Assembly: GCA_041918615.1 (NCBI GenBank)
Contig: JAYRVH010000013.1
Location: forward strand, 190 to 64,189
DNA from: Acidimicrobiales bacterium
GTDB taxonomy: Bacteria > Actinomycetota > Acidimicrobiia > Acidimicrobiales > DATDAH01
Length of the DNA stretch: 64,000 bases
Direction: 5' to 3'
The notes under the pieces were generated by a model. It ran no database searches, was not told where the DNA came from, and was given only the letters and a program-made list of their open reading frames with translations. Numbering within the stretch: the stretch's first letter is position 1; every line of letters starts with the position of its first letter. A program made the translations under genes and the position numbers. Shown here in pieces: positions 465-7,085 of the stretch.

Positions 465-1220
465 GTGCCGGTGAGCCGGGGGGCGCACCATGGCGCCATG
501 CCAGACGTCGGGGAAGCGTCGGAGGAGGTTCGGGCGTTGCACGTCCTCGTGGTCGGGACCGAGGGCTGGGCGGTCGACCGGGCCATGCGAGCGCTGCAGC
601 ACGCAGGCCATGTGGTGGTTCGCTGCCCACAGATGGAGCTCTCGCCTTCGGGCTGCGCCGTGCTGGACGGAACCGCCTGCGAGCTCGACGACCGGCTCGA
701 TGTCGTCCTGTCGGTGCGGGCGCACCCGCTGTCCAGGGTCATGGCCTCGGAGTACGGGGTCGTCTGCGCGCTGCGACGCGGGGTCCCCCTGGTCCTCGCC
801 GGCAGCGCGCACCACAGCCCGTTCGCCCCGTGGGCCGTCACGAGCACCGACATCGATGGGGACCTCGTCGACGCGTGTGTCCGGGCCGCGTCGTCAGGTA
901 AGGGGGGTCGCGGGCCGCGCCCGGGCGCTTCGGTTGACGAGCTCGAGCTGACGGTGCGTGGCCGAGCGCAGCCCCGCCAGACGGCGGCGGTCGAGCGTGT
1001 CGCACGCCCAGTCCCAGTGGAGGGCCAGCCAGTCGCCCGGCGCCCACCCTCGCAGCAACGCCGCCCCCTCGAGGGCCAGGCGGACCTCTTCCTCCTGCGG
1101 CGCGCCGAGGACGAGTCGCCCGTCCACCCACTCCACCGGGCGGGCACGGACCGTCGCATGGTCACCGTCGACGCCCAAGAGCCGCCCCCAGCGGATCCGG
1201 CAGCGGTCGAGCACGCGTAG
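465..1220 (+). CDS. hypothetical protein; last ~110 codons overlap the convergent gene
   Basis: The first ~145 aa look protein-like (ALHVLVVGTEGWAVDRAMRALQHAGHVVVRC...). The frame stays open to 1220 only because it runs antisense through the 894-1712 gene. Start is uncertain (GTG 465 or ATG 498). Confidence 0.4.
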   Translation: MPVSRGAHHGAMPDVGEASEEVRALHVLVVGTEGWAVDRAMRALQHAGHVVVRCPQMELSPSGCAVLDGTACELDDRLDVVLSVRAHPLSRVMASEYGVVCALRRGVPLVLAGSAHHSPFAPWAVTSTDIDGDLVDACVRAASSGKGGRGPRPGASVDELELTVRGRAQPRQTAAVERVARPVPVEGQPVARRPPSQQRRPLEGQADLFLLRRAEDESPVHPLHRAGTDRRMVTVDAQEPPPADPAAVEHA

Positions 1221-1712
1221 CGACTCTTCGACGACCCCGGAGCGGAGCAGCCCCACCCACGGGTAGACGCTGAACACCTGGAAGGCATGGGTCGGCGCCC
1301 CGCCGGCCTCGATCTCGGCCGATACGTCCGACCATGCGGTGCCGGCGCGCGCGGCGAACCGGTCACCGAGGCGGGCGTCGAAGTCCGCGGCGGAAACCCG
1401 GCGGCTCGACGCGTTGCCGAGCCAGTAGGCCTCGACCACCCGCCCGTCGAGTGGGTCGTCGAGGCCGAGCGCGTCGGCGATCATCTCGAGGTAGGGCCAC
1501 GCCCCGTCGAACCGCCGAGCGAGATCATCGAGACCGCCGTCCACGCGGTCGCCCGACGCATAGGCGAGCAGGGCCTCGTGGTCGTCCGGGCCGCAGTACC
1601 CGAGCTCGTTCGGCGGATAGGCATACCGGGCGAAGAGCGACGCCCCCGCCGCACTCACGGTCTGTTCATGGCCGTCGTTCGGCCGGTGCTTCCCGGGGGA
1701 CGTCGACGCCAC
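894..1712 (-). CDS. conserved hypothetical protein, last gene of the hydrogenase operon (possibly DUF6390-like)
   Basis: 272-aa ORF with good composition (YAYPPNELGYCGPDDHEALL..., HWDWACDTL). Same strand as hypC, and its 5' end overlaps the hypC 3' end. The family assignment is from memory only. Confidence 0.6.
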   Translation of the reverse strand: MASTSPGKHRPNDGHEQTVSAAGASLFARYAYPPNELGYCGPDDHEALLAYASGDRVDGGLDDLARRFDGAWPYLEMIADALGLDDPLDGRVVEAYWLGNASSRRVSAADFDARLGDRFAARAGTAWSDVSAEIEAGGAPTHAFQVFSVYPWVGLLRSGVVEESLRVLDRCRIRWGRLLGVDGDHATVRARPVEWVDGRLVLGAPQEEEVRLALEGAALLRGWAPGDWLALHWDWACDTLDRRRLAGLRSATHRQLELVNRSARARPATPLT

Positions 1713-1926
1713 CGACGAGGGCCAGGGCGTCGGCGGCTGCGACCTCGTCGATCACGTCGACAGCCAGACCGGTGTGGACCCGCAGCCACTGGCCCTCGAC
1801 CGCCTGGGTGCCCTCCAGGGCCAGCACCGCCAACGAGACCGCCCGGCGCCGCCCGCCCGACTCGATCACCGCCGCACCCCCGTCCTCGCTGACGGACACG
1901 ACCTGCCCCACATCGGTGAGGCACAT
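1666..1926 (-). CDS. hypC: HypC/HybG/HupF-family [NiFe]-hydrogenase assembly chaperone
   Basis: Internal start giving [12 protein letters not shown]... (the hallmark N-terminal Met-Cys), 86 aa. Its ATG (1926-1924) shares one nucleotide with the protease TGA (TGATG). Confidence 0.85.
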   Translation of the reverse strand: MCLTDVGQVVSVSEDGGAAVIESGGRRRAVSLAVLALEGTQAVEGQWLRVHTGLAVDVIDEVAAADALALVGGVDVPREAPAERRP

Positions 1927-2492
1927 CAGACCGGGTCCGGCGCAGGAGAAGGCCCCGCGGTCTGTTCGGGCCGGGAGGACGCGGAATGCGGCGACAGGAG
2001 GCTCGACGACAAGGAATGCGCCTCGGCCACGAGCATGGCGACGGCCTCCGGGACCGCTGAGGCGACGGGCGGGCTCAGGGCATCGCCCTCGGCGAAGTCG
2101 TGGCCCTCGATCCCGAGGACCACCAGGCGCTCGGGCAACCGACCGAGCGCCCGGCCGAGATCGACCGCAGCCCGCACGCCGGCACCATGGGTACTGGTCC
2201 CCGGACACCAGGCGCGCCAGCGCCGGTCGGGCGCGAGTGTTCCGCCGGCCGACACCGCCACGATCCGATGGAGGGTGCCGGCACGGCCGCCGGCACGCGC
2301 CGCGTCCACCACGATCGCCGCGGCGGCCCCGTCCCAGGCATCGAGGAGCCGAGTCGGCTCACCGTCGGTCTCGACGACCGCGGTGCCTCTGGGGAATTGC
2401 GAAGCGGCCTCGCCGACGATCCGGAACGCCACCCCGTCGTCGCCGCGGAAGGAATTGCCCACCGCGATGACCACGAGCGGCGCCGCGCTCAT
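1926..2492 (-). CDS. hydrogenase maturation endopeptidase (HycI/HoxW/FrhD family)
   Basis: [23 protein letters not shown]... (GNxxxxDDGxG) and [10 protein letters not shown]. Its ATG at 2492 overlaps the large-subunit TGA (ATGA). Confidence 0.85.
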
Positions 2493-3793
2493 CGACGATC
2501 CACGGTCAGGTCGAGGAAGTGGGTGGCACACGAGATGCAGGGGTCGTGGTTGCGGATCACCTGCTCGCAGCGGTGGCGGAGGTCGTCGTCCGACAGATCG
2601 AGGTTCTTCTCGACGAAGTGGAACAGGTCGTGCTCGATGCTCGGCTGGTTCTGCGAGGTCGGGGGCACGATGACGGCATCGGTGATCAGCCCGTCCGAGT
2701 CGAGTGAATAGCGGTTGTAGAGCAGCCCCCGGGGCGCCTCGGTGACGCCGTGGCCGACGGCGGCGGTCGGCTCGACGGGCACCGCAGGACGGTCGGGCGG
2801 CTCGTAGGATTCGATGAGCGCGATCGCCTCGTCGCACGCGTGCAACACCTCGACCGCCCGCATCACGATGCTGCGGAACGGGTTGCGGCAGTCGGGCCCG
2901 AGGTCGACCGCCGCAGCGGCCTCGCGTGCGCCTGGCGACAGCTGCTCGAAGTTGAGGGCGAACCGGGCCTGCGGGCCGACGAGGTACCCGCCACGTTCCA
3001 GCAGGTGCGCGTGCAGCGCGTTGGAGCGGGCCACGTGGCTCTCGACGACGTGGTCGGCGAACTCCTCGGGGGCGATGTCGAGCCCGGCGCTGGACCGGAT
3101 GCGCCCGCCGAGCACGGCGTACTCGTCCGGGCGCCAGAGCGCGACGAGCTCGTGGTGGTGCTCGAGATCGGGCACGTCGAAGTCACCGACCCAGCGCACG
3201 GTCGCCACCGCGGTCTCGCGCGCCCGGAGCAACTTGTCGCGCAAGGGCCGGAGCTCGCGCTTGGTGGGCACCCGGTAGAAGCCGCCGACCCGCACGTTGA
3301 CCGGGTGGATCGCACGGCCACCGAGGGTCTCCAGCACCTCGTTGCCCACCCGCTTGAGGTCGAGGCCGTCCTGGACGAGCGAGCGGTGGTCGGCTGCCAT
3401 CTCCACCGCACCCGCGTAGCCGAGGAAGTCGGGAGCGTGGAGCATGTAGACGTGCAGCGTGTGGCTCTCGATCCACTCGCCGCAGTAGAGGATGCGACGG
3501 AGGTCCCGGAGCGGTCCGTCGACCGTCACCCCGCACGCCGCCTCGATGGCCAGGCACGAGCTCATCTGGTACGCGACCGGGCAGATCCCGCAGATCCGGG
3601 CGGTGATGTCGGGGGGCTCGGTGTAGCGCCGGCCCCGGAGGAACGCCTCGAAGAAGCGGGGCGGCTCGTAGATCTGGAGTTGGACGTCGACGAGCGCGCC
3701 GTCGCGGATCTCGACATACATGGCGCCCTCGCCCTCCACCCGGGCCAGGGCGTCGACCTTCAAGGTGCGCGAGGCGGGGGCGCGGTGGGTCAC
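2489..3793 (-). CDS. hyhL: [NiFe]-hydrogenase large (alpha) subunit, group 3b-like
   Basis: N-terminal RVEGEG, proximal Ni-binding motif [11 protein letters not shown]-terminal [12 protein letters not shown] start at 3793 overlaps the small-subunit TGA (GTGA). The upstream part of the 536-aa track ORF is Arg-rich junk. Confidence 0.9.
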
Positions 3794-4602
3794 GGCTCGG
3801 ACCCCCGGCGGACGTCGGGCAGCGGGAGGCGGGCCTCGCTCTCGGACCGGAACGGCTCGGCCCAGGCGTTGAAGGTCCGGAGCAGGCGCCCGATGTCGGC
3901 GTCGCTCGTGCCGAGCGCGCCGAGCGTGGGAGTGAGGGCCGCGGGTGCGGCCGACTCCATCGGCCCGAAGCAGCCGTAGCACCCGCGCTGGTAGCGGGGG
4001 CACAGCGCTCCGCACCCGGCGTGGGTGATCGGCCCCAGGCACGGCACGCCGCCGGCGACCAGCACGCACACGTTGCCCGCGGCCTTGCACTCGACACACA
4101 CGCTCTGAGCGCTCACCGCAGGGCGTCGGCCGTGCAGGAACGCACCGATCACCTCCAACAGCTGCGCCCCGTCGATCGGGCAGCCCCGCAACTCGAAGTC
4201 GACCGGCACGTGGGCCGAGATCGGCGTCGACGTGTCGAGCGTCGAGATGAACGCGGGCGTGGGGTACACGATGGCGAGGAACTCCTCGACATCGCCGAAG
4301 TTCCGCAGGGCCTGGATGCCCCCGGCGGTGGCGCAGGCACCGATGGTCACGAGGCGGCGAGAAGCGGCGCGGACCTGTTGGATCCGCTCGACGTCGACAG
4401 CCGTGGTGACCGACCCCTCGACCAGTGACACGTCGTAGGGGCCGTCCACGGTGGCGCTCGACGCCTCGAGGAAGTAGCCGATCTCGACCTCGCCGGCCAC
4501 GGCCAGCAGCTCGTCCTCACAGTCGAGAAGGGTGAGCTGGCACCCGTCACAGGACGAGAACTTCCAGACGGCGAGTCGCGGGAGCGATCGGGCCCCGGTC
4601 AT
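3790..4602 (-). CDS. hyhS: [NiFe]-hydrogenase small (delta) subunit, group 3b-like
   Basis: [27 protein letters not shown]..., GACATAGG, and C-terminal Cys clusters ([26 protein letters not shown]). ATG at 4602 overlaps the hyhG stop (ATGA). Confidence 0.9.
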
Positions 4603-5453
4603 CGCGCGCTCGTCCGGAGCAGCGGTGCCGCGTTCTCGTGGTCGAACACGGGCCCGTCGAGGCACACGAAGCTGCCGCCCAGCTGGCAGTGCCCGCAATG
4701 GCCGACGGCGCACTTCATGTTGCGTTCGAGCGACACCTGCACGGACCGGGGATGCACGCCGAGGCCGATGAGCGCCTGGGCGGTGAATCGCATCATCACC
4801 TCGGGCCCGCACACGAGGGCGACGGCCTCACCCGGCTCCATGTCCACCCGGTCGAGCACCTCGGTCACCACCCCCACCGCCCCCTGCCATGAGCGGTCGG
4901 CGTGATCGACGGTGGCCACCACCTGCACGTGAGGGCGTCGGCCCCACTCGGCGAGCTCGTCCTGGAAGAGCAGGTCGCCCGGGGTCCGCGCACCGACGAC
5001 GATGGCCACCCGCCGGAAGCGGTCGGGGTCGGCGAGCGCCTCGAGCACAGCCGGCCGGAGGGGCACGAGGCCCACGCCCCCGGCGACGAACAGCAGGTCG
5101 CCACCCCCGGCGCCCGCCAGGTCCCAGGCGGTGCCGAACGGGCCGCGGACACCGACCACGCCGTCGACCGGCGTGGCGACGAGTGCCTCGGTGACGGCGC
5201 CGACCGCGCGGATGGTCTCTTCGATCGTCCCGTCGGCGGCATGCATGCCGAGCGAGATCGGCACCTCGCCGACCCCGAACGCCCAGAGCATGAAGAACTG
5301 GCCCGGCCTGGCCTCCGGCAGGGCCGCGTCGACCGGCGCGAGGGTCAACGTGACCGTGTCGGCGCCGTCCTGGCGACGACCCACGACACGGTAGCGGTGC
5401 GGGAGCATGGGTTCTGGGGCCGTGCCGACCGGGAGCAGCGGGGCGTCAAGCAT
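4599..5453 (-). CDS. hyhG: hydrogenase gamma subunit: FAD/NAD(P)-binding oxidoreductase with 2Fe-2S site
   Basis: PyrK / sulfite-reductase-like fold motifs ([29 protein letters not shown]) and C-terminal [14 protein letters not shown]. Start ATG 5453; ATG 5408 is also possible. Confidence 0.85.
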
Positions 5454-5904
5454 GCCCGTAGACGTCCAGGAGTCGCAGGCGGGTGGCTTGGAGTCGGCGC
5501 ACCAGCAGGCCCGCGAAGCGCTGCACGAGCCGGTACCCGAGGGCGGGATCGTCGTCGCACTTCGCGCGCAGGCACGCTGCGTCGAGTGCCACCGCGGCGG
5601 TGTCTTCCAGGGCGATCGCCTCGAACTGCCACCGGTGCGGCGGGAACAGCCAGGACGCCCCCAGCACCTCGCCCGCTCCCAGCATGGTGACCACGAACGG
5701 CGGCTTGCCGACGACCTCCATCTCGAGGGCCACCCTCCCCTGGCGGAGCACGTAGAAGTGATCGGCCGGCTCACCCTCACGGAAGATCGTCTCGCCCGCC
5801 GAGAACCGCATGTTCACCCCGCAACCGGCGAGAAGGTCGAGGTCGGGATCGGGCAGGTCTCCGAAGAACGGGTGCTCCTGCAACAGGTCGCGGATGCCCT
5901 TCAA
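5446..5904 (-). CDS. stand-alone cyclic-nucleotide-binding-domain protein (152 aa, no HTH)
   Basis: TTG start at 5904 overlaps the hyhB TGA (TTGA). Sequence [17 protein letters not shown]...[20 protein letters not shown]...[10 protein letters not shown] is a typical cNMP/CRP-type beta-barrel. It ends 8 nt inside hyhG. Confidence 0.75.
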
Positions 5905-7085
5905 GACGACTCCTCTCCTGAGCCCACTGGGCTCCCGTGTCGGGCCGGCCCGCGTCGGCGCACCGAACCGTCGGTCGCGGCGATGGCCGCCACCTCCTCG
6001 GTGAGGTCGATGCCGACCGGGCACCAGGTGATGCAGCGGCCGCACCCGACGCAACCGAGCTCGCCGAACTGATCGGCCCAGGTGGAAAGCTTGTGGGTGA
6101 GCCATTGGCGGTAGCGGGACCGGACGGTCGACCGAACGGGCCCTCCGTGCAGATAGCTGAAGTCGAGCGTGAAGCAGGAGTCCCACCGCTGCCACCGCTC
6201 GGCCACGGCTCCCGTGACGTCGGTGGTGTCCTCGACGGTCCCGCAGAAGCAGGTGGGGCAGACCATCGTGCAGTTGGTGCAGGCGAGGCACCGCGTGGCG
6301 AGGTCGTCCCACCGGGGGTGCTCGAGGTTGCGGGCCAGCAGCGCCGCCACCTCGGCGGCAGGGACATGCCGTCGCTGACCCGCGACCGCCATGGCCGTCG
6401 CATCGGCTGCGGCGTCCTGGTCGGCCCGGGTGGCGGGCTGATGCGGGACCGCGGCGAGGACGGCCGCTCCCTGCTCGCTGCCCACCCGAACACCGAAACG
6501 ATGCTCGCCGCCGTCGAGCAGTTCGACGAGCGCGAGGTCGAACCCGTCGGCCGCGGCGGGGCCGGCGCCCATCGAGTCGCAGAAGCACGTCGGTCCTGCC
6601 TCACCACAGTCCACGGCGACGATGAAGGCGTCGGCCCGCCGGGTTGCGTAGCCCGGGTCGGCGACGGCCCCGTCACGCAGCACCCGGTCCTGGACCGCGA
6701 TGCCACGCAGGTCGCAGGACCGGACGCCGATGAACGCGTTTCGGACCGGGGCCTCGACCGCGTCGTCGATCTCGAAGCCTCCGCCGCCTCGCCTCGCCCG
6801 GAAGACGAGTGATCTGGCGGGGTGCAGAAAGGGCTTCCACGAGGTCGCCGGCGTCGTGAACCCGAACAGCGCGGCGTCTTCCCGGCGCCGCAACCGGTAG
6901 CGCCCCGGGGCCTGCTCGTCACCCCAGCCCGCGGGGAGGTCGGCCACGCCGTCGATCTCGTCGAGCACGACGGCACCGTCGCGTACCGTCGGCCCGATCA
7001 GGGTGCGGCCGTCGCCACGGAGGGCGTCGAGCAGCGCCGCCAGCCCCGCCACGGTGAGTATGCCGTCCATCACGGACGCCAGCAT
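5901..7085 (-). CDS. hyhB: hydrogenase beta subunit: 4Fe-4S dicluster protein
   Basis: [16 protein letters not shown] and [15 protein letters not shown] ferredoxin-type motifs. 394 aa, first gene of the operon. Confidence 0.85.

Follow-up and report, generated by a model that had tools for sequence, protein, structure and literature searches.

What role does a small protein with the fold of a cyclic nucleoside monophosphate (cNMP)-binding domain play between two structural genes of a hydrogenase operon? The question is raised by a window of 64,000 nucleotides (nt) from an Acidimicrobiales bacterium (GenBank assembly GCA_041918615.1, contig JAYRVH010000013.1, positions 190 to 64,189 of the forward strand; the window is this whole stretch, and all coordinates refer to it). 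Here, a gene for a protein of 152 amino acids (aa), located at 5446-5904 on the minus strand, is wedged between two genes of a group-3b-type [NiFe]-hydrogenase operon, those for the beta (HyhB-like) and the gamma (HyhG-like) subunit. An earlier sequence-only reading took its product for a fifth, non-DNA-binding component of the enzyme rather than a transcription factor; on the genomic evidence this is the best-supported reading, although the interpretation as a whole stands only in part. With moderate confidence, based on sequence comparison, we regard the protein as a dimeric, non-catalytic accessory or regulatory subunit that would dock on the beta/gamma NAD(P) module and respond to a non-canonical ligand. 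Because roughly two in three operons of this kind, from many phyla, have the gene built in, its product is a probable fifth regulatory subunit, one that is absent from the model enzymes studied so far.

The gene and the fold of its product

The open reading frame (ORF) is interlocked with both of its neighbors. Upstream, its TTG start (5904-5902) and the TGA that ends the beta gene (5903-5901) overlap as TTGA, while downstream its own TGA stop (5448-5446) lies 8 nt within the gamma gene, the ATG of which is found at 5453 (ATGCTTGA). A Shine-Dalgarno-like run (GGAGAGGAG, 5918-5910) is placed 5-13 nt ahead of the TTG. The start codon is likewise TTG in the closest strain and ATG at the same place in a 78%-identical relative, and homologs from other phyla align from residue 1. 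These overlaps, read in the DNA, and all coordinates of the ORF agree with the sequence-only reading, which had left the strand unstated; the frame is free of internal stops, and its product holds the motifs quoted there. The gene evolves under purifying selection, with a ratio of nonsynonymous to synonymous substitution rates (dN/dS) of 0.07 in comparison with a 98%-identical relative and 0.16 with the 78%-identical one. A word-indexed search yielded 2,134 relatives of the protein, the best 120 of which are all 152-169 aa long and contain PF00027 only; an exhaustive search of 1.84 billion cluster representatives returned 132 relatives at E<=1e-30 and 2,265 at E<=1e-10.

The sole Pfam domain of the protein is PF00027 (cNMP_binding; residues 33-118, 59.7 bits with a cut-off of 27.5, E=2.8e-16). 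No helix-turn-helix (HTH) motif was found by Pfam, and the chain ends at residue 152, right after the C-helix, leaving no room for one; the earlier description of a cNMP barrel devoid of a DNA-binding domain is thus borne out. In lacking a C-terminal HTH, the protein falls outside the CRP/FNR transcription factors. The AlphaFold2 (AF2) model (mean predicted local distance difference test score, pLDDT, 92.9; predicted template modeling score, pTM, 0.86) comprises an N-terminal helical pair, an eight-stranded barrel (strands within residues 29-108), a short helix (109-118), and a long helix (120-149). Together with the Pfam score, this arrangement of strands and helices and the Foldseek probability of 1.00 to cNMP domains place the protein within the PF00027 fold. 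The best Foldseek matches in the PDB are GlxR and Mycobacterium tuberculosis CRP (template modeling score, TM, 0.75-0.79) and the stand-alone cNMP protein 3MDP (TM 0.81/0.93).

The long C-terminal helix (5458..5547, minus strand) is, according to the AF2 model, the counterpart of the dimerization C-helix of CRP, and it ends in the conserved tail RLxxTRLxLLDVYG. Among the 120 relatives, R54, G56, P89, D108, R113, G123, R142, D147, and Y149 are invariant, while C28, S84, W85, L86, P88, W92, C111, K115, C116, and the tail L145-L146-D147-x-Y149-G150 are nearly so. The tail is retained also in the diverged copies of the gene found upstream of the beta gene in Chloroflexota.

A conserved slot next to the beta/gamma module

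One genome per species was scanned across 185,579 species, and at least 585 of these hold a confirmed relative of the cNMP protein. Gene order was read with tblastn, using the eight operon proteins of the window, in the best 80 of the at least 585 loci. The order beta-cNMP-gamma is present in 76 of the 80, followed in most by delta, alpha, and the protease. These loci represent more than 15 phyla, among them Actinomycetota, Acidobacteriota, Chloroflexota, Pseudomonadota, Verrucomicrobiota, Planctomycetota, Bacteroidota/Ignavibacteriota, Myxococcota, Nitrospinota, Binatota, Omnitrophota, Cyanobacteriota, Zixibacteria, and Dormibacterota. Annotated plasmids of Paraburkholderia, Burkholderia, and Pandoraea carry the same five genes in the same order. 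Strains with beta-cNMP-gamma include Paraburkholderia phytofirmans OLGA172 (plasmid pOLGA1), Burkholderia thailandensis, and Frankia casuarinae. The exceptions are two stand-alone paralogs (L049 and L076), a locus without a beta match (L065), and a locus of Calothrix sp. MO_167.B12 (L061), in which beta-cNMP-gamma is present with no delta (small) or alpha (large) subunit gene within 8 kb. As the only alpha match of that genome (G406:C101) is absent from the tblastn of the locus, the alpha gene probably lies on another contig and the operon would then be split. The pairing of the cNMP gene with the hydrogenase is clearly not confined to close relatives, and the conserved gene order guessed at in the sequence-only reading is real. 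The gene had also been mentioned before, in Frankia (see below), in Rhodococcus equi, where it appears in a list of genes (PMC13332983), and in a methanotroph, where it was simply named HoxI (PMC12319191); no functional study and no published survey of it was found in the literature searched. It is, in sum, a recurrent and previously noticed part of bacterial NAD(P)-linked hydrogenase operons.

A second survey, in which loci were found by their beta subunit and sampled by phylum, is not biased toward the cNMP gene. Across 1,304 genomes, 62 loci contain the gene and 32 do not (62/94, 66%). By phylum, the loci with and without it number 17 and 20 in Actinomycetota (401 genomes sampled), 12 and 0 in Acidobacteriota (251 genomes; one more locus is truncated and unscored), 27 and 3 in Chloroflexota (251 genomes), and 6 and 9 in Pseudomonadota (401 genomes). 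The beta subunit was matched in 36 Chloroflexota genomes, and the 30 loci read there comprise 14 with the order beta-cNMP-gamma, 13 in which the gene is located upstream of a beta-gamma fusion, and three without it. In twelve of the Actinomycetota loci that lack it, inspection of the DNA showed the beta and gamma genes to be spaced by 14-170 nt, which leaves no room for a cNMP gene. A divergent actinobacterial operon (L102, G089:C6:64977-79168; alpha 38% identical) shows the order beta-gamma-delta-alpha-cNMP, with the cNMP match at 6001-6441 on the minus strand; the gene is thus found at the operon end, like hoxI in Cupriavidus necator.

The coupling seen in the window is the rule. In 89 loci, with start positions inferred heuristically, the median distance from the beta stop to the cNMP start is -4 nt and that from the cNMP stop to the gamma start -11 nt, and gaps of 30 nt or less occur between beta and cNMP in 86 and between cNMP and gamma in 87 of the loci. 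The 13 Chloroflexota loci with a fusion (L136-L148; genomes G746, G863, G809, G827, G903, G895, G836, G667, G845, G680, G737, G692, and G818) encode beta and gamma as one stop-free, in-frame polypeptide of about 612-635 aligned residues and form a single clade with 100% support in the beta tree. Directly upstream of each, on the same strand, is a diverged cNMP homolog that has kept the WSxLxPP and RLxATRxQLLDLY motifs and is devoid of the cysteines. Since an upstream copy accompanies the beta-gamma fusion, the cNMP gene stays with the beta/gamma module even when its usual slot has vanished. Two further fusions come from the representative library. A cNMP-gamma fusion of 468 aa (P0176) is found in three metagenome assemblies from three samples (L166-L168), each time preceded by beta, and has an Arg-rich linker of 30 residues in place of the LLDVYG tail; a beta-cNMP fusion of 542 aa (P0178) occurs on a single contig (L165). 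Among the approximately 160 fetched loci, fusions of beta to gamma were the only ones encountered, with no beta-cNMP or cNMP-gamma fusion. Tandem two-domain relatives (P0122), considered as single-chain dimers in hydrogenase operons, were rejected, their context being a resistance-nodulation-division (RND) efflux system.

In a FastTree phylogeny of 146 beta sequences, the presence or absence of the cNMP gene requires 7 changes, versus 22.5 for shuffled labels (none of 200 shuffles was as low). Loci without the gene form a few clades nested among those with it; depending on where the root lies, the pattern fits an old association followed by repeated loss. One beta residue, Trp83 (6837-6839), is present in 91% of the loci with the order beta-cNMP-gamma, in 77% of those of the upstream type, but in only 25% of those that lack the cNMP gene, and is suggestive of a possible contact residue.

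Cassette, analogs, and rival explanations

The region that corresponds to the phosphate-binding cassette (residues 78-98; 5611..5673, minus strand) has been remodeled to the signature G-[ED]-V-L-G-x-S-W-L-F-P-P-[YH]-R-W-x-F-D-A. When the protein is aligned without gaps to HoxI and to GlxR, which binds cAMP, the canonical Gly-Glu coincides with G82-A83 and the canonical Arg-Thr with W92-Q93. Position 83 is Ala in the window protein and Trp in 65 of 121 relatives; S84 and W85 are each conserved in 120/121, P89 in 121/121, and W92 in 117/121. No phosphate-binding helix is assigned by AF2/DSSP to residues 77-94, between strands 67-76 and 95-98. The cassette is thus turned into a Trp/Pro-rich loop, GxSWLFPP[YH]RW. 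The sequence-only reading correctly called it non-canonical, yet set the 'GE' too early, at G78-E79. The Gly-Glu and Arg-[Ser/Thr] on a short helix that mark a functional cAMP/cGMP receptor are missing, with some doubt left by R91, which is adjacent to the canonical Arg position. A conserved Trp/Pro-rich loop takes the place of the Glu and Arg-Ser/Thr that contact the nucleotide, and the ligand is therefore probably not canonical cAMP or cGMP. A lack of cyclases was considered as a further argument against a cyclic nucleotide and was rejected, as the host genome has eight class III cyclase domains.

The closest functional precedent is HoxI (PHG093) from the soluble NAD+-reducing [NiFe]-hydrogenase of C. 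necator H16 (group 3d, HoxFUYHI2), which binds as a homodimer to the diaphorase module and is dispensable for core catalysis (PMC3702609, PMC3189943). Like the window protein, it is a small (167 aa) cNMP-only protein encoded in an operon for a soluble NAD(P)-linked [NiFe]-hydrogenase, and its canonical Arg is replaced as well, in this case by His. NADPH-dependent activation is a further mark of HoxI, which dissociates when salt is high and the pH alkaline. However, the two share only 23% identity over 107 residues (32.7 bits, compared with 49 bits for GlxR, when the window protein is the query), and HoxI has neither the SWLFPP..W loop nor the LLDVYG tail. The genes also differ in location, hoxI following the protease gene hoxW, and HoxFU is Complex-I-like and unrelated to the AsrAB-like HyhBG. 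The hhalign probability of 92% between the window protein and HoxI is as expected for any two cNMP domains, and tblastn of the window protein on pHG1 did not match hoxI at E<=1e-3. Given the low identity, the score below that of GlxR, and the missing pHG1 match, orthology was rejected. As far as context tells, the window protein would be HoxI-like in role, recruited independently and not a member of the HoxI family.

The regulators GlxR and M. tuberculosis CRP (phmmer E ~5e-12) share the N-terminal helix, the eight-stranded barrel, and the long C-helix with the window protein. In contrast to them, it has no HTH, their cAMP-holding Glu and Arg-Thr correspond to Ala/Trp83 and Trp92-Gln93, and no phosphate-binding helix is predicted. 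The stand-alone cNMP proteins Gmet_1532 (PDB ID: 3MDP) and Mfla_1926 (PDB ID: 3GYD) have the same length and a single domain, but they are structural-genomics targets without a known hydrogenase link and only 20-28% identical. The reference group-3b enzymes, Pyrococcus furiosus sulfhydrogenase I (SHI; HydBGDA, PDB ID: 9NEZ and 9NF0) and Mycobacterium smegmatis Hyh/Hyd3 (MSMEG_3931-3927), consist of homologous beta, gamma, delta, and alpha subunits. Both are four-gene systems, whereas a fifth gene is present in the window operon and in about two thirds of the sampled bacterial loci. The M. smegmatis enzyme belongs to the class without the cNMP gene, since MSMEG_3931 (beta) and MSMEG_3930 (gamma) are consecutive (PMC2799521).

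Applied to the window operon, the favored explanation would involve four steps. The cNMP protein would be made in step with HyhB and HyhG by way of the overlapping start and stop codons. It would fold into a cyclic-nucleotide-binding-type beta-barrel with one long helix, through which, by analogy with CRP and HoxI, it probably dimerizes. The putative dimer could then dock on the beta/gamma module with its Fe-S and FAD/NAD(P) sites. Finally, a small ligand, probably other than canonical cAMP or cGMP, or a redox signal might tune or gate the exchange of electrons between NAD(P)(H) and the hydrogenase dimer. The kept beta/gamma slot, the overlapping codons, the move upstream that accompanies beta-gamma fusion, and the rare fusions to gamma or beta all support the notion of a fifth component as formulated in the sequence-only reading. 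That reading had omitted the HoxI precedent, the earlier mentions of the gene, and the approximately one third of bacterial 3b loci that do without it.

Several observations weigh against a dedicated subunit. About one third of bacterial 3b loci, including that of the M. smegmatis Hyh, the only studied bacterial enzyme (PMC2799521), have no cNMP gene; as these loci work without it, the gene is dispensable for catalysis. Close paralogs are found outside hydrogenase loci (L049, L076, L100, L101, and several per Streptomyces genome), so the fold can act without a hydrogenase, and fusions of cNMP domains to universal stress protein (USP) and to HAD domains exist. Of the members, 76% have R91 and 93% are acidic at position 79; with these mostly retained and eight class III cyclase domains encoded in the genome, the ligand may be a cyclic nucleotide after all. 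Only 3 of 358 beta columns track the presence of the cNMP gene, Trp83 being the sole suggestive one, and the gamma NAD(P) motif G[AST]R[ST]P is the same across architectures with and without the gene. A search of the PDB returned no solved structure that contains a close homolog of the cNMP protein, and the fusions carry modest weight because each represents one lineage.

The alternative that survives best, which we nevertheless consider unlikely, is a free soluble signal protein: an effector domain of the CRP/FNR type without its HTH that would bind cAMP, cGMP, or another messenger, make transient contacts, and control hydrogenase expression or other targets, with membership in the operon reflecting co-expression only. 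It draws on the cAMP-binding regulators GlxR and M. tuberculosis CRP being the nearest relatives in sequence and fold, on the cyclase domains and the residues retained at positions 79 and 91, and on paralogs that stand alone beside stress genes (USP and glucose-6-phosphate dehydrogenase, G6PDH) on Streptomyces and Rhodococcus replicons or are fused to USP; the gene has also been termed a small transcriptional regulator in a Frankia paper (PMC11879354). However, the protein has no DNA-binding domain, and the canonical Glu and Arg positions hold Ala/Trp and a near-invariant Trp. A slot between structural genes that is strictly kept in more than 15 phyla and has overlapping codons, the move upstream of fused beta-gamma, and fusions to gamma or beta would all be unusual for a diffusible regulator.

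Two further roles appear improbable to a similar degree. As an assembly or maturation factor for beta/gamma, the protein might assist Fe-S or flavin insertion or act as a holdase, and would be absent from the mature enzyme. Its co-translation with beta and gamma, its dispensability in one third of lineages, as is often the case for accessory maturation factors, and the further maturation genes of the operon (protease, HypC, and DUF6390) are in line with such a role. On the other hand, the cNMP fold is not known to act as a chaperone, and its stable fusions to gamma or beta speak for a lasting association. HoxI, the sole studied analog, moreover belongs to the mature enzyme (PMC3702609).

The protein could also be a redox or metal sensor subunit whose thiol switch, or metal/Fe-S site, would be built from the near-invariant Cys28, Cys111, and Cys116 and would report the O2 or redox state. 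In the main clade these residues are conserved in 117/121, 117/121, and 109/121 sequences, C28 lying ahead of strand 1 and C111/C116 after strand 8, strands that should be adjacent in the cNMP fold, and the enzyme class is linked to hypoxia (PMC2799521). Nevertheless, the upstream-type copies of Chloroflexota lack the cysteines, as do the copy in the divergent actinobacterial operon L102 and the copies in the Streptomyces operons L104 and L105; being missing from several operon-linked clades, these residues are not essential to the core role of the family. They probably do not correspond to the cysteines of FNR, an N-terminal group and an internal one that bind a [4Fe-4S] cluster. Lastly, a chance ORF or the remnant of a decaying regulator, as might be considered given the rare TTG start and the long spurious ORFs common in high-G+C genomes, is excluded by conservation: low dN/dS, more than 2,000 homologs of the same length, a confident AF2 model, a position kept across phyla, and a Shine-Dalgarno-like run ahead of the start.

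The host operon and its significance

All genes of the window operon are located on the minus strand. The beta subunit (HyhB/HydB-like, 4Fe-4S, 394 aa; 5901..7085) contains PF17179 (Fer4_22), has sulfhyd_HydB/ShyB as its best NCBIfam match, and matches a single PDB entry, the beta subunit of P. furiosus SHI (9NEZ_B). The gamma subunit (HyhG/HydG-like, FAD/NAD(P) and 2Fe-2S, 284 aa; 4599..5453) combines PF00175 (NAD_binding_1) with PF10418 (DHODB Fe-S) and corresponds in NCBIfam to AsrB, cytochrome-c3 hydrogenase gamma, and HydG. They are followed by the delta (small) subunit (270 aa; 3790..4602; PF01058, Oxidored_q6; ShyD/HydD) and the alpha (large) [NiFe] subunit (434 aa; 2489..3793; PF00374, NiFeSe_Hases; ShyA/HydA), the best PDB matches of which are 5YXY and 9NEZ_D (E ~1e-64), cytosolic/sulfhydrogenase alpha subunits of Thermococcus and Pyrococcus. 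For all four subunits the best NCBIfam matches are Shy/Hyd sulfhydrogenase families, with scores below the equivalog cut-offs. The assignment to group 3b is based on these best matches and on the literature on homologous operons. The only solved structures of the group-3b type in the PDB are archaeal, those of SHI and of the Thermococcus kodakarensis enzyme, both without a cNMP subunit.

Downstream of alpha are genes for a hydrogenase maturation protease (1926..2492; PF01750, HycI), a HypC/HupF chaperone (1666..1926; PF01455), and, as the last gene of the operon, a DUF6390 protein (894..1712; PF19927, E=1.2e-92), the start of which is probably downstream of 1712. In a near-identical locus (L169), the DUF6390 gene is called as 254 aa and starts after hypC; choosing the longest ORF in the window therefore probably created the 47-nt overlap with hypC as an artifact. 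The DUF6390 gene recurs 3' of the hydrogenase genes in several loci of Acidimicrobiia/Actinomycetota (L008-L011, L024, L025, L027, L028, L090, L169, and L170) and may encode an uncharacterized hydrogenase-linked factor.

Streptomyces genomes (G024, G054, G282, and G306; plasmid NZ_CP108260.1, L002) contain two to four paralogs of the family outside hydrogenase loci. One of these adjoins genes for a universal stress protein, carbonic anhydrase, and G6PDH, and the USP-cNMP fusion is represented by P0251. From these contexts, the cNMP-only family may have a broader tie to regulons of hypoxia or dormancy.

Few hydrogenases are as widespread in bacteria of soils and sediments as those of group 3b, which are proposed to dispose of NAD(P)H, or to provide it, under hypoxia. 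According to a genome paper, NADP dependence has been tested for no bacterial 3b enzyme (PMC6688271). If most of these enzymes carry a subunit with a sensor fold, the way they are regulated, and perhaps which cofactor they use and in which direction they run, could not be inferred from the P. furiosus and M. smegmatis enzymes that lack it. As a small soluble subunit in cultivable Paraburkholderia, Burkholderia, Frankia, Rhodococcus, and Streptomyces, the protein makes the question directly testable.

A more far-reaching and considerably more tentative proposal is that the typical bacterial group-3b enzyme is not a BGSL tetramer but a five-component one, with a cNMP-fold sensor, probably in two copies, on its NAD(P) module. 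The sensor would predate the main bacterial 3b radiation, and at least five losses would have followed, one of them in mycobacteria. The sensor might hold a non-canonical ligand in a Trp/Pro-rich pocket, with NAD(P)H, flavins, or other aromatic metabolites as examples, and might decide whether the enzyme evolves or takes up H2, or else turn it on under hypoxia. Were this so, the archaeal and mycobacterial model enzymes would be atypical. A subunit role for the protein, if true, would constitute a second, independent recruitment of the cNMP fold as a hydrogenase subunit, which bears on how sensor domains become parts of enzymes.

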